Origin: Blastocatellia bacterium
Lineage (GTDB): Bacteria; Acidobacteriota; Blastocatellia; RBC074
Length of the DNA: 56,834 nucleotides
Reading direction: 5' to 3'
Assembly (NCBI GenBank): GCA_031398365.1
Contig: JANNND010000012.1
Span: 1-56,834 of the forward strand
The translations under genes and the position numbers were made by a program. The notes under the pieces are model-generated. The model was not told the origin of the DNA and ran no database searches. It saw only the letters and a list, made by a program, of their open reading frames with translations. This document shows positions 9,711 through 53,421 of this stretch, piece by piece. Position 1 is the first letter of the stretch, and the number at the start of each line of letters is the position of its first letter.

Positions 9711-9803
9711 AGTCTATTGAGTCCGTAGGGCCTGTAGAGTCTTGAGAGTCTGAATTTCCAATGACTCATACAGACTTTATAGACTCTATGGACTTTACAG
9801 ACT
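9711..9803. repeat. Imperfect hairpin whose arms are tandem 9-mers (AGTCYNTWG x about 4.5 versus the complement x about 3.5)
   Basis: Arm 1 is agtctattg/agtccgtag/ggcctgtag/agtcttgag/agtctg. The reverse complement of arm 2 is agtctgtaa/agtccatag/agtctataa/agtctg. It fills the ctc-pth intergenic gap. Confidence 0.7.
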
Positions 9804-10445
9804 TCATTTCTTCTCTTCGACCTTGCCCTTCTTAATCACTTCCGGCTCCGCTGTGGTTACCTCAGCAACAGCCTCTTCTTCACGTGGCGCAACGACCGTA
9901 GCGATAACAGCATCGGCATCTGTAACGAGTTGGAACTTGTTCGTGTCGAGGTTCAAATCGCTGACGCGCAGGTGTTGTCCCAGCCCAAGTGATGTTACAT
10001 CTACATCCAGATGTTCCGGCAAATCATTGGGTAAACATCGAACCTTGATCGCGTGACTCACGACGTCCAAAATGCCGGCTGCCATTTTCACGCCTTCCGC
10101 TTCACCGATGATCTTTAGGGCAATTTCAAATTCAGATCGTTCTGTCAAAGAGATGCGCTGTAAATCCAAGTGCCAGACATTGCCCTTGATTGGGTTAAGC
10201 TGCATTTCAGCGATTTTCACCGTCGAGGTGCCGCCATCCAGATGCAAGGTGATAATCCCGTGCCGTCCGTGGGCGCGAACGAAAGTACCCAATTCTTTTT
10301 TCGTAACAGAGGCCGCAACGGCGTCCTGTCCGTCTCCGTAAATCGTTACGGGAATTAAGCCATCACGGCGCATTCGTCCGGCGGCTCCCTTACCACGTTC
10401 TGCGCGCGGCTGGGCATTCAGCAAAATACTTGTATCAATACTCAT
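9804..10445 (-). CDS. ctc: 50S ribosomal protein L25 / general stress protein Ctc
   Basis: RAERGKGAAGRMRRDGLIPVTIYG... plus a long C-terminal domain and an acidic/lysine tail, typical of Ctc-form L25. Confidence 0.88.
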   Translation of the reverse strand: MSIDTSILLNAQPRAERGKGAAGRMRRDGLIPVTIYGDGQDAVAASVTKKELGTFVRAHGRHGIITLHLDGGTSTVKIAEMQLNPIKGNVWHLDLQRISLTERSEFEIALKIIGEAEGVKMAAGILDVVSHAIKVRCLPNDLPEHLDVDVTSLGLGQHLRVSDLNLDTNKFQLVTDADAVIATVVAPREEEAVAEVTTAEPEVIKKGKVEEKK

Positions 10446-10469
10446 AAACTTACACTCCCAAACTAAATC

Positions 10470-11417
10470 TCAAATAAACAAGCGGCTTACCGAAGTCTCA
10501 TCGTGAATGGATTTGATGGCTTCAGCAAGAAGCGGCGCCACACTCAGGCATTCATACTGCGCCGAGGCGCGTGCTTTATCCGCCGGTACCGTGTTGGTAA
10601 TGACAACTTTTTCCAGTGGCGAATTGGCAATTCGTTCAATCGCATTGCCCGACAACACCGCGTGTACGCAACTGGCCACAATGCTTTTCGCGCCTTCTTT
10701 TTTCAGGGCTTCCGCCACTTTCGTCAACGTGCCAGCCGTATCGGCCATATCATCCACAACCAACACGTTGCGGCCTTCGACTTTGCCAATAACGTTCATC
10801 ACTTCGGCTTCCGCATGACCGGGTTTCGATTTGTCGCGGCGTTTGTCCACGATGGCAAAATCCGCATTCAGGCGTTTCGCATAGGCGCGGGCGCGTTCTG
10901 CGCCACCGGGATCGGGCGCAACCACCACCAGGTTTTCAATCTGTTGCTTCAGAAAATATTCAATGATGACAGGTGAAGCGAACAAGTGATCTACCGGAAT
11001 GTCAAAGAATCCTTGAATCTGTGGCGCGTGTAAATCCACTGCCAAAACCCGATCCGCGCCGGAAGTCGTAATCAGATTGGCCACCAACCGGGCCGAAATC
11101 GCAATTCGGGGCTTGTCCTTTTTGTCGCCGCGTCCGTATCCGTAATAAGGAATTACTGCCGTGATACGGTCGGCGGAAGAGCGCCGGAAAGCGTCAATCA
11201 TTAATAACAACTCAATCAGGCTGGTATCAACCGGCGGGCAAGTGGGTTGTATGATAAAGACGTCACTGCCACGCACGTTTTCAAGGATCTGAAAATTGAA
11301 TTCGCCATCAGGAAAACGCGTGGTGTTAGCGCGCCCCAGAGGGACTCCTAGATACTGGCAGATTTCCTCCGCCAGCGGGCGATTCGCGTTACCGGAGAAT
11401 ACTTGTAAACTATTCAC
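10470..11417 (-). CDS. prs: Ribose-phosphate pyrophosphokinase
   Basis: VFSGNANRPLAEEIC..., DLHAPQIQGFF and the VVDDMADTAGTL PRPP-binding loop. Confidence 0.93.
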   Translation of the reverse strand: MNSLQVFSGNANRPLAEEICQYLGVPLGRANTTRFPDGEFNFQILENVRGSDVFIIQPTCPPVDTSLIELLLMIDAFRRSSADRITAVIPYYGYGRGDKKDKPRIAISARLVANLITTSGADRVLAVDLHAPQIQGFFDIPVDHLFASPVIIEYFLKQQIENLVVVAPDPGGAERARAYAKRLNADFAIVDKRRDKSKPGHAEAEVMNVIGKVEGRNVLVVDDMADTAGTLTKVAEALKKEGAKSIVASCVHAVLSGNAIERIANSPLEKVVITNTVPADKARASAQYECLSVAPLLAEAIKSIHDETSVSRLFI

Positions 11418-11463
11418 GGGGTACTACAAACTTTTGAGCAGTTATTGGGGCCTGACAAAAAAA

Positions 11464-11538
11464 TGGCTGGGGAGCTAGGATTCGAACCTAGGAATGGCGG
11501 CTCCAAAGGCCGCTGCCTTACCACTTGGCGACTCCCCA
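11464..11538 (-). tRNA. tRNA-Gln (anticodon TTG), CCA encoded
   Basis: Cloverleaf folded by hand: acceptor TGGGGAG/CTCCCCA, anticodon stem GCGGC/GCCGC with loop CTTTGGA, T arm CTAGG-TTCGAAT-CCTAG. Confidence 0.9.
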
Positions 11539-51205: not shown

Positions 51206-51826
51206 CTATTGCTTGCCAGCAGTGGACGCTTCAAGCTTCTTTTCCTCAGGTTTTGTTGCACTGCTTGTTGGACTTGGAGTTGGACTTGCTTCTGGGTTCT
51301 TTTCTTCCCAATCCGCAATGGCTAAGCGTTCTGACTCACCAATCGTTTCCTTGACGAGCGTCAAAGGAATATAAATCGTTTCATTCTTCTCGAAATAATA
51401 CGTGACGCCTATCGTAACGCTATTGTCGGTTAGCGCCACAATATTTTCAGTCAATGGAACAGCTTCAATGACCTTTTCGTCCTTACCTTTGCGCTGGGCT
51501 AATAATGTTTCGCGGAAGGTTTTCTGGGAGTCTGTCAATTTCTTTTGCGCGTTAGCCGTGAGTAGCGCTTGAGCTTGATCGAAATTGCCTTCTTTAATGA
51601 GTTGATTGAATTTATAGAGCAACTCATTAACCTGCTTAGGATCATTCACCGCGATGGCTGGCGGCGGCGGCGCTACAATCCGATTGGAAACCTTGCGATA
51701 CACAGCAAATGCTCCAAATAGAAAAAGGATTGCCACGACCCATAAAAGGATTGGCAACGATTGACTTGATTTCGGAGTGTCAGGACTGAGCGCTTCGTTG
51801 GTATCTTCAAATACAGTTCTCATCAA
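51206..51826 (-). CDS. Membrane-anchored hypothetical protein
   Basis: TM segment LPILLWVVAILFLFGAFAVY, then a soluble domain and a PTPSPTSS tail. No family recognised. Confidence 0.5.
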   Translation of the reverse strand: MMRTVFEDTNEALSPDTPKSSQSLPILLWVVAILFLFGAFAVYRKVSNRIVAPPPPAIAVNDPKQVNELLYKFNQLIKEGNFDQAQALLTANAQKKLTDSQKTFRETLLAQRKGKDEKVIEAVPLTENIVALTDNSVTIGVTYYFEKNETIYIPLTLVKETIGESERLAIADWEEKNPEASPTPSPTSSATKPEEKKLEASTAGKQ

Positions 51827-52003
51827 AACCTCGGTTTCAGTAGGAGAAATTGGTTAATATCATTGACAACTCTCACGTTAGCGCAGCAGACAGGTTGTGT
51901 CAAATTAGATGTTTTTCATTGCATCAGACGCCCGAGACCGCTAAGCTTCGCTCTTTGCTTTTAGTCTGTAATCATTACGAAAAAAGTCCCTGAAACAAAA
52001 CTT

Positions 52004-53278
52004 ATGTCCACCAAAACAACGCTTGGCATTCTAGGTCTCGGCACAGTTGGTACCGGTGTCGTCAAACTGCTCCGCGACAATCCGCAATTTGAAATTCGCG
52101 CGATTGCGGTGCGCGATACAAACAAAGCACGCGAAGTTGACCTCGCTGGTTTTCACGTTACTGACAACGCTTTTGAATTGGCCGACGATCCAAATATTGA
52201 AATTATCGTCGAGGTCGCAGGCGGTATCGGGCAAGTTCATGAAGTAGTCAAGCGGGCCATCAACAACGGCAAGCATATTATTACGGCGAATAAAGAAATG
52301 ATCGCCAAACACGGCCCTGAGATTTTTGAGGCTGCCAATCGTCACAACGTTACTGTTTTTTTTGAAGCCGCAGTCGGTGGTGGCATCCCCCTTATCTCCA
52401 CAATGCAGCGTGGCTTACAGGCCAATCGGATTTTCAAGGTCGCCGGCATCGTCAACGGTACGACCAATTACATTTTGACGATGATGGAGCAGGAAAAGAA
52501 ACCATTTGCCGAAGCCTTACGCGAAGCTCAAACCAAAGGCTATGCCGAAGCTGACCCAACCGATGACATCGAAGGCAATGACGTTGTTTACAAGATTGCC
52601 ATTCTGGCTTCGCTCGCCTTTCAATCGCCCGTCGAAGTCGGCAAAATTTATAAACAAGGCATCACCCAAATCAGCGACCTCGACATTCAACTGGCGAAAG
52701 AATTCGGTTATCGCATCAAGATGATTGGCCTGGCGCAACCCGTCGGCGACACCGGGAAAATTGATGTGCGGGCGCATCCGATGCTGGTGCCGCTGCATCA
52801 CCCATTGGCCAGCATTGAGGGAGTCAACAATGCAATTTTTATTAATGGCAGCGCGGTCGGCGAAGTAATGTTGTCCGGCCCCGGCGCAGGCCAATTCCCC
52901 ACGGCGAGCGCGGTCGTCGGTGACATTTTTAATTTGACCAGCGCGCTCAAGCTGCCGGATTTCGCGCGCTATTTTCAGCCTGCGATGAATTCGACGACTT
53001 GTGATGTGTGTCCGATTGAAGAAACGACCAACGCGTATTACATTCGCCTGGAAACGTTGGATGTGCCGGGCGTGATTGGGCATCTTGGTTTGGCCTGTGG
53101 CGAACACGGCGTGAGTTTGCTAGGTCTGGTGCAAAAAGGCGTAACGGATGAAGGCATTGCCACGATTGTTTTGCTCACGCATAAGGTCAAAGAAAGCCAA
53201 TTGCAAGCGGCCTTGCGCGATATTCGCAAACAAAGTACGACCAAAGAAATCCCGGTTGTGTTGCGTGTCTTGAGCTGA
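52004..53278 (+). CDS. hom: Homoserine dehydrogenase (with C-terminal ACT domain)
   Basis: LGILGLGTVGTGV, ITANKEMIAKHG, GIVNGTTNYILT and AQTKGYAEADPTDDIEG. Confidence 0.93.
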   Translation: MSTKTTLGILGLGTVGTGVVKLLRDNPQFEIRAIAVRDTNKAREVDLAGFHVTDNAFELADDPNIEIIVEVAGGIGQVHEVVKRAINNGKHIITANKEMIAKHGPEIFEAANRHNVTVFFEAAVGGGIPLISTMQRGLQANRIFKVAGIVNGTTNYILTMMEQEKKPFAEALREAQTKGYAEADPTDDIEGNDVVYKIAILASLAFQSPVEVGKIYKQGITQISDLDIQLAKEFGYRIKMIGLAQPVGDTGKIDVRAHPMLVPLHHPLASIEGVNNAIFINGSAVGEVMLSGPGAGQFPTASAVVGDIFNLTSALKLPDFARYFQPAMNSTTCDVCPIEETTNAYYIRLETLDVPGVIGHLGLACGEHGVSLLGLVQKGVTDEGIATIVLLTHKVKESQLQAALRDIRKQSTTKEIPVVLRVLS

Positions 53279-53287
53279 TGTAAAATA

Positions 53288-53421
53288 AATCAAAAGGCAA
53301 AAGGCAAATCTCAAACAGTCGCAACTGGCGGCAAAAGGTCGGCACTTCGTTAATTATCAATTCTCAATTGACCATTGATAATTATTTTTGACATTTGCCT
53401 TTTGACATTTGCCCTTTGATT
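53288..53421. repeat. Nested inverted repeats: outer heptad-armed IR (RGCAAAA-type, 3-4 versus 5 units) enclosing an 11-bp perfect AT-rich hairpin
   Basis: Outer arms are aatcaaaaggcaaaaggcaaatctcaaa (53288-53315) and tttgaca tttgcct tttgaca tttgccc tttgatt (53387-53421). The inner hairpin is taattatcaat (53351-61) / attgataatta (53374-84) followed by T5. Confidence 0.8.

Follow-up and report, generated by a model that had tools for sequence, protein, structure and literature searches.

Contig JANNND010000012.1 of the Blastocatellia bacterium assembly GCA_031398365.1 (56,834 nt, hereafter the window) contains six intergenic hairpins, called el1 to el6 in coordinate order, that share one build: one arm consists of two to five degenerate tandem units, and the other arm consists of complementary units. 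The window is one whole contig of a 7.07-Mb assembly of 760 contigs, and the genome is labelled G000. With a probability of roughly 0.7, the six hairpins belong, as gene-less and in part decayed copies, to two superfamilies of small palindromic cassettes. In class 1 the units measure 7 nt and the 5' arm is rich in G and poor in C; this class is best read as a cassette whose full copies enclose a gene of the PF05635 (S23p) family, and it includes el2 to el6. Class 2 has units of 8 to 10 nt with a CRCRGA-like core; its full copies are best read as enclosing a GxxExxY (PF13366) gene, and it includes el1. In both classes, arms abound in the genome while the gene that they enclose is single-copy. 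Cassettes and hairpins alike occupy transcribed spacers directly past stop codons; among congeners, the elements at a given junction have been gained, lost, flipped, and refilled by other families, and S23p proteins and their flanking heptamers have diverged together. PF05635, the "23S rRNA intervening-sequence protein", is a family that we take to be an Avd-like four-helix bundle, and GxxExxY proteins are presumably PD-(D/E)XK nucleases.

The six hairpins of the window

An earlier note on this DNA had described six elements of one design, and direct reading of the sequence found all six hairpins in place. The first, el1 (9704-9803), is built from 9-nt units of the YRTAGAGTC type, about five per arm, and occupies the entire 100-nt spacer between two minus-strand genes; its arms are 36 nt long and 72% complementary. 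el2 (11547-11625) consists of the heptamers GGATTGC and ATCCGAA (x4) and lies between a minus-strand tRNA gene (11467-11538) and the 3' end of the open reading frame (ORF) at 11593-12507. Its right arm (ATCCGAA x4, 11593-11625) codes for the ISDFGFRISD tail of that ORF, that is, its last nine residues and the stop codon. el3 (19652-19694; heptamers GGTAAGGG and CCATTAC CCCTTACC) is short and decayed, with an 8-bp stem and two degenerate units, and is the weakest among the six. el4 (22441-22561) carries five GGTGGTY and four ACCGACN heptamers around a loop of about 70 nt and is located between BMC-P and BMC-H genes. el5 (42963-43042; heptamers of the AGGTGNY family) directly abuts the stop codon of the upstream gene, and its 23-nt arms are 96% complementary and flank a 34-nt loop. 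Finally, el6 (53287-53422) is composed of GGCAAAA-family heptamers and contains the inner core of that family, GGTCGGCACTT, as well as an extra palindrome inside the loop.

When folded as single-stranded DNA and compared with dinucleotide shuffles, the elements reached z values of -2.75 (el1), -2.47 (el2), -2.50 (el3), -2.97 (el4), -7.28 (el5), and -5.67 (el6), so that the folding of el1 to el4, each taken alone, is only modest. An inverted-repeat finder recovered el1, el4, el5, and el6, and Tandem Repeats Finder (TRF) recovered most arrays. At Rfam gathering thresholds, the window yielded only two tRNAs, and the elements matched no known RNA family. Intrinsic terminators were ruled out, as the arms are 23 to 36 nt long, of moderate GC content, and able to pair in several registers. 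Ordinary terminator-like structures are present in the window at 41607-41645 and 51120-51171, where perfect, non-periodic hairpins of 19 and 23 nt, respectively, stand at convergent gene ends, in contrast to the periodic elements. The tandem 6/18-nt repeat at 41042-41158 (TCCGAC...) lies within ORF 40485-41585, is coding, and is unrelated to the hairpins.

Gene-bearing cassettes and repeat families of the genome

Five matches to PF05635 were found in the genome. The S23p gene at C725:15630-15926 is situated between GGCAAAA arrays with the inner core TCGGCACTT / AAGTGCCGA, and both arms and core are as in el6. Another S23p gene, which is split across two contig ends (C418/C336), lies between AGGTGTT arrays of the el5 family, a further one (C622) lies between CGATGAA arrays, and a truncated copy (C385) retains a GAAACTC arm. 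An S23p ORF inside arms of the same family is thereby found in this genome for the el5 family (C418/C336) and the el6 family (C725), and it is found for the el4 unit GGTGGTC in genomes G004 and G008. A same-family S23p-bearing copy was not shown for el2 or el3, a GxxExxY copy with GAGTCT arms (the el1 type) was not found, and none of the six window copies holds an ORF.

PF13366 is represented by a single gene, on contig C648, the 130-aa ORF of which lies between ACGGAACAG 9-mer arrays and encodes a protein with an intact PD...ExK motif. This locus was found independently, via a search for distant inverted arrays. Arms 200 to 3000 nt apart mostly belonged to neighbouring, separate elements around ordinary genes (e.g., those for RpiB, TsaD, and a HIT protein), and the real cassettes recovered in this range were those on C648 and C725 only. 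The C648 locus is composite (17400-18046): a full gene-less 9-mer hairpin (17400-17568) is followed by the gene and then by a second right arm (18017-18046). In a sequence search of the PDB, an S23p copy gave a single match, 2rld (an uncharacterised protein with five chains), and the GxxExxY protein gave none. The cassette arms yielded about 100 BLAST high-scoring segment pairs genome-wide, and the gene bodies were single-copy.

The units of the gene-less elements fall into dispersed families as well. The GGCAAAA family comprises 57 elements by unit clustering and about 84 loci by BLAST; the sizes of other families by unit clustering are 40 (AATCCTGTC), 35 (ACGGAACAS), 27 (AACACCT), 27 (CACGAATTA), and 23 (GAGTTTY), and AGGTGTT, GACAGGATT, and ACGGAACAG are among the further recurrent units. 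Thus, the claim that the unit sequence is different every time is correct within the window but does not apply genome-wide, where units recur. el6 is 91-100% identical to other copies across 75-107 nt, loop included; its arms are present at the same 84 or so loci, at eight of which the match covers 60% or more of the element (91-100% identity). The remaining elements with relatives (el5, el4, and el1) have few of them in BLAST searches, and at arm level only, with arm matches of el1 at about nine other loci in the genome. Elements may also be nested: at C32:15537-15700 and like loci, outer 8-10-mer arms of CACGAAG / CACAGAG surround an inner GACAGGATT 9-mer hairpin.

Unit length and cargo gene across bacteria

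The association of unit length with cargo gene was surveyed in 120 other Blastocatellia genomes (121 including this one), using the 30 best loci per gene family. S23p genes occurred in 77 and GxxExxY genes in 88 of these genomes. Inverted repeats spanning the gene were present at 29/30 S23p loci, compared with 1/30 displaced control flanks, and alternative pairing registers were shifted by exactly 7, 14, or 21 nt at 27 of the 30. At GxxExxY loci, cross-gene inverted repeats were seen in 28 of 29 cases (controls: 1/27), with register shifts of 8-10 and 16-20 nt. The arms of the GxxExxY loci have a CRCRGA-like core in common (CACAGAG, CGCAGAG, CACGAAG, ACAGGAT, CGCGGAT), and the YRTAGAGTC units of el1 fit this pattern. 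Those of the S23p loci vary on a G-rich, C-poor theme (YAGTGGY, CGGTGGT, CGGTTGT, and others). Furthermore, pairwise identity of the S23p proteins drops with increasing distance between their heptamers (0.74, 0.62, 0.53, 0.50, 0.45, 0.37; Mantel r -0.44, p 0.0005).

The association extends well beyond Blastocatellia. Named genomes were searched with a profile, which delivered 80 S23p loci, 77 of them usable, from about 14 phyla: Acidobacteriota, Bacillota, Planctomycetota, Proteobacteria, Bacteroidota, Chloroflexota, Desulfobacterota, Verrucomicrobiota, Lentisphaeria, Omnitrophota, a member of the Candidate Phyla Radiation (CPR), and others. Cross-gene inverted repeats were found at 60 of the 77 loci (three in the control), and at 59 the period was 7. 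In addition, hairpin arrays were counted in 400-kb samples from seven genomes. Two genomes without either gene had no heptamer and one 8-10-mer hairpin array each, a genome with GxxExxY alone had none of the former and nine of the latter, and two genomes with both genes had 15-32 heptamer and 8-16 8-10-mer hairpin arrays. Across the sampled genomes, the link between gene and hairpin is strong, not absolute.

Genome-wide enrichment and anatomy of the hairpins

The enrichment that the earlier note had proposed to look for is evident genome-wide. TRF reported 676 arrays of period 7 versus 162 in a third-order Markov simulation (4.2-fold) and 855 arrays of period 9 versus 180 (4.8-fold), and periods of 8, 10, and 11 were not enriched over the simulation. 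A reverse-complement partner within 200 nt was present for 36% of the period-7 and 28% of the period-9 arrays, as opposed to 0-3% for reversed or complemented controls and approximately none in the simulation. Merging of the paired arrays gave 369 elements, 319 of which lie within the 12.6% of the genome left non-coding by the gene caller. By the inverted-repeat search, 1264 of the 3749 intergenic regions contain an inverted repeat, versus 167 genic and 55 shuffled controls.

A register test that is independent of gene calls makes use of the fact that periodic arms can pair in alternative registers offset by the period. In the 3749 intergenic regions, these offsets peak solely at 7/14/21/28 and 9/18/27 nt, and multi-register hairpins are almost absent from the controls (two stray offsets in the matched genic set and none in shuffled spacers). 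Under a strict rule, 196 spacers contain heptamer hairpins and 106 contain nonamer hairpins, which are lower bounds because just one of the six window elements passes the rule. The genome total is at least 300-370 copies, of which the 9-mer class accounts for 106-165. The 9-mer element of the window, previously taken for an exception, hence belongs to a second large class.

In co-directional spacers, the median distance from the upstream stop codon to the 5' arm of an element is 6 nt, and that from the 3' arm to the following start codon is 22 nt. The described proximity to stop codons is thus borne out, and in the case of el2 the element itself supplies one. The 5' arm contains more G than C in 159/185 heptamer and 94/100 nonamer elements, a polarity that is identical on both strands because the element is palindromic. 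Regardless of unit size, the median arm measures 28-32 nt (28 nt in heptamer elements). In gene-bearing S23p cassettes the arms are about 33 nt long, or roughly five heptamers, as estimated from the listed arm lengths. S23p homologues crystallise as pentamers (Lin et al. 2006, cited in PMC4990558), and five chains are likewise present in 2rld; the numerical match between five heptamers per arm and the pentamer is only suggestive.

Turnover at orthologous junctions

Comparison with congeners was made at the junctions holding el1 and el3 to el6 (J1 and J3 to J6) and at the tRNA junction that holds el2. J1 is a clean spacer of 6-17 nt in eight congeners and is filled by GAGTCT-type elements with differing unit forms in G006, G004, and G011. 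J5 is empty in G004 (a 2-nt spacer, CAT-ac-CTA), contains AGGTGTY elements in G006 and G010, and contains GAGTTTY elements in G001 and G011. At J3, G001 has a clear GGTGGTC element, i.e., one of the el4 family, G011 has a GTAGTCG element, and the copy in G006 is without a right arm. J4 carries a hairpin in every genome examined, with five different heptamers among them (besides that of el4, CTGAGTG in G001/G008, CAGTTAA in G011, TCAGNTN in G005, and GTGGCTA in G014). The tRNA junction was occupied in 7/7 congeners examined, with diverged units. In four congeners the right arm of el2 is a perfect ATCCGAA x4, and the left arm retains the older GGATTGC-type units; the C-terminal tail of ORF 11593-12507 changes in congeners together with the sequence of the el2 arm. 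As the earlier note had observed for the window, unit numbers are unequal between arms, and they also differ between orthologues.

GGCAAAA elements with differing loops were found at J6 in four genomes, and a GTTGTCA element was found there in G004. The element el6 lies in the opposite orientation to its G006 orthologue, with which it shares only 80.5% identity, and is nearer to G006 paralogues (93-95%). The inverted segment is its central part, as seen against locus L104 (G006:C984); elsewhere the two genomes are 91-94% identical. The inversion suggests that the segment flipped between the inverted arms or that another copy took its place. In G010, the locus orthologous to window positions 53279-53436 (L106, G010:C66:33880-34360) has a lone right GGCAAAA-type arm. 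Here, the arm adjoins a Cys-rich ORF of about 105 aa that is zinc-ribbon-like and not S23p, and which may be a different cargo.

Proposed origin and consequences

The cassette reading may be spelled out as follows. Each array of tandem units would offer the cassette protein a series of recognition sites, and gene-less hairpins would be spread or maintained in trans, or would arise on loss of the cargo gene. Replication slippage could afterwards alter the unit number and homogenise single arms. Once transcribed, a stem of about 28-32 bp would be an expected substrate of RNase III, by analogy with the S23p-bearing intervening sequences of rRNA, and its cutting would make an insertion between cistrons tolerable, with punctuation of the operon mRNA as a side effect. 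That a cassette protein recognises its own units is a testable hypothesis because the period tracks the gene family and because protein and unit co-diverge.

Several observations weigh against the assignment of the hairpins to mobile cassettes. No target-site duplication was visible at the junctions compared, including the empty/filled pairs of J1 and J5. J3 and J4 are filled in every genome examined, and host selection for a hairpin at these places could be the reason. BLAST of the genome found no relative of el2 or el3, which are placed in class 1 by design and unit type only. Homology between gene-less and gene-bearing copies stops at the arms and a core some 10 nt long; the loops are not homologous to the cargo genes, and the gene-less copies are not simple internal-deletion derivatives. 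In the hairpin census, G029 has two S23p genes and zero hairpins in 400 kb, and G057 has nine heptamer hairpins in 400 kb with S23p undetected. The co-divergence of protein and unit could stem from joint inheritance instead of recognition, and the relatives compared are non-independent. To our knowledge, S23p has no known catalytic activity. Lastly, the assembly is fragmented, the gene calls come from our own crude codon-usage caller, and the thresholds of element detection miss degenerate copies.

A more far-reaching proposal, which we put forward tentatively, is that S23p and GxxExxY proteins each partner their own class of periodic hairpin, recognise its units, and drive or guide its spread, which would amount to a pan-bacterial and undescribed mobile or self-maintaining element. 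We know of no explanation for the intergenic heptamer repeats of bacteria, which have been on record since 1990, and of no assigned function for the S23p and GxxExxY families, both of which are large. If true, the proposal would explain the excess of intergenic heptamer repeats (those termed STRR and those of Xanthomonas and Geobacter), where ORF-bearing intervening sequences of rRNA come from, and what the two protein families do. The elements also have practical consequences: they fill at least 8% of the intergenic spacers in this genome, probably break contigs and with them the assembly, extend or replace the C-termini of genes, and are likely to introduce RNase III sites into operons. For these reasons they bear on annotation and on the reading of operon structure in Acidobacteriota and many other phyla.

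Alternative explanations

The arrays could be host sites conserved for their function, either for binding by a global regulator or nucleoid protein or as RNase III signals, into which S23p and GxxExxY genes merely insert. Binding of the IHF/HU type was proposed for the same design by Aklujkar et al. (PMC2700814), and experiments have shown that RNase III excises intervening sequences that bear S23p. The distribution of the elements agrees with this explanation as well: co-directional, transcribed spacers are favoured and divergent ones are under-used (8% versus 15%), and cargo genes with co-directional neighbours mostly share their orientation (31 versus 4 opposed). A single regulator, however, misfits the many unrelated units per genome and the different families at one junction, and neither the junctions that are empty in congeners nor the co-divergence of protein and unit nor the lack of an RNA-level wobble signature (see below) speaks for host sites. 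Overall, this explanation appears unlikely.

Another explanation, which builds on the slippage mechanism of the earlier note, is that local slippage together with palindrome correction generates each hairpin, which the host then keeps for transcript punctuation or stability. Unequal unit numbers, the homogenised arm of el2, the position close to stop codons, and the status of el2 and el3 as sequence singletons are what such a process would leave behind, and J3, J4, and the tRNA junction hold some hairpin, with differing units, in every congener examined. Local generation does not account for dispersed families with common arms, cores, and loops, for gene-bearing copies, for clean empty sites at orthologous junctions, for one family at non-orthologous junctions in different species, or for the lack of the hairpins in genomes with neither gene. 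Covariation among the seven el2 orthologues looks weak, with compensatory changes at 3/17 pairs and an unfavourable covariation term, but the pairing register of periodic arms is ambiguous, which limits what this shows. Selection for an RNA hairpin found no support either: on the sense strand, 232 G.T mismatches stand against 278 A.C mismatches, so there is no excess of G.U wobble, and transitions make up more than half of all mismatches. This is the pattern expected for decaying DNA palindromes and not for selected RNA stems. We consider local slippage an improbable origin; as a secondary process, slippage is real and does reshape existing arms, such as the right arm of el2, and it is retained in the cassette reading.

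That the hairpins are repetitive extragenic palindromes (REPs) or REPINs moved by REP-associated tyrosine transposases (RAYTs; Y1/HUH type) is very improbable. The genome does have eight Y1_Tnp (PF01797) matches, and REPINs are likewise intergenic hairpins with several families per genome, but the Y1 flanks are short, GC-rich, non-periodic repeats (GTCCCTGACGGGAC, CCCAGCGNNNNNCGCTGGG, AAGCCCGCGAACGCGGGC) without periodic 7- or 9-mer arms. The Y1_Tnp loci examined, seven of the eight matches, carry other non-periodic, GC-rich palindromes or no cross-gene repeat. RAYT-like Y1 genes with classical GC-rich REP flanks (GTCCCTGACGGGAC, AAGCCCGCGAACGCGGGC) are located at C466:592-933, C661:1854-2192 and 8987-9316, C691:15752-16096, and C409:34023-34358. 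The genome thus has a second repeat system, of the classical REP/RAYT kind, that is separate from the periodic hairpins. A miniature inverted-repeat transposable element (MITE) derived from a DDE transposon was rejected too, given that the J1 and J5 pairs show no duplication and that no genes other than S23p and GxxExxY share the arms.

Comparison with known systems

The cassettes resemble the foldback (FB-type) transposons and MITEs of eukaryotes and bacteria in their long inverted arms of short tandem subrepeats and in the predominance of non-autonomous over gene-bearing copies. This is an analogy only, since neither a DDE transposase nor a target-site duplication was seen here and the elements are much smaller. 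The REP/REPIN-RAYT system (Bertels and Rainey 2011, PMC3116915) also consists of families of high-copy intergenic palindromes, and each family has its single-copy gene, which is flanked by repeats of that family. In the present case, the gene is S23p or GxxExxY instead of a Y1 transposase, and the arms are periodic tandem arrays.

The earlier likening of the elements to the heptameric short tandem repeats (STRR) of cyanobacteria was apt. Here too, intergenic heptamer arrays of several unit types are found; the STRR definition does not cover pairing of inverted arrays or a link to a gene. In Xanthomonas, 70-75 convergent inverted pairs of GGGAATC were read as G-quadruplex formers, and GGGGAYT arrays were reported from Nostoc (Rehm et al. 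2015, PMC4692102). Like the elements described here, the Xanthomonas, Nostoc, and STRR arrays are intergenic tandem heptamers of strain-variable length, and the Xanthomonas pairs share the polarity seen here, with the G-rich strand in front. Most units of the present genome, however, are without G-runs, and there are many of them, compared with one dominant unit per genome in Xanthomonas and Nostoc. In Geobacter metallireducens, paired sites on opposite strands consist of three to five tandem units of 7, 8, or 9 nt (MTYCTGA, GTTGCTYN, and TCTCCGTS[Y]), which are intergenic and variably spaced, for example, between proB and proA (Aklujkar et al. 2009, PMC2700814). The design is the one found here, although the comparison is by design only; the unit TCTCCGTS complements the CRCRGA-type core of the GxxExxY-class arms. 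The Geobacter sites belong to another phylum and were read as IHF/HU regulator sites without a link to S23p or GxxExxY, and GxxExxY/PF13366 has been listed as of unknown function (PMC3424549). The literature search returned no paper that links periodic-armed hairpins with S23p and GxxExxY genes. The bare architecture, which had been thought to lack a description in Acidobacteria (and none was found for that phylum), has already been described, without explanation, for Geobacter and Xanthomonas.

Intervening sequences of 23S rRNA that bear an ORF, as in Coxiella burnetii and Leptospira (Warrier et al. 2016, PMC4990558), are a further known system with an S23p gene in a long inverted-repeat stem. 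In Coxiella, an S23p ORF and a 28-bp terminal stem occur together in the intervening sequence, which is excised by RNase III, and tandem GACAGAT heptamers vary in number between Coxiella strains (PMC4990558). Variable tandem heptamers next to the stem and a suspected selfish or mobile nature are common to the rRNA intervening sequences and the elements of this study (PMC4990558). Strict 23S rRNA intervening sequences, which occupy helix 25/45, were rejected as an identity for the window elements, all six of which lie between protein-coding or tRNA genes. The elements of this study differ from the rRNA intervening sequences in that they are located between protein-coding genes, are mostly devoid of an ORF, and comprise dozens of unit families per genome.

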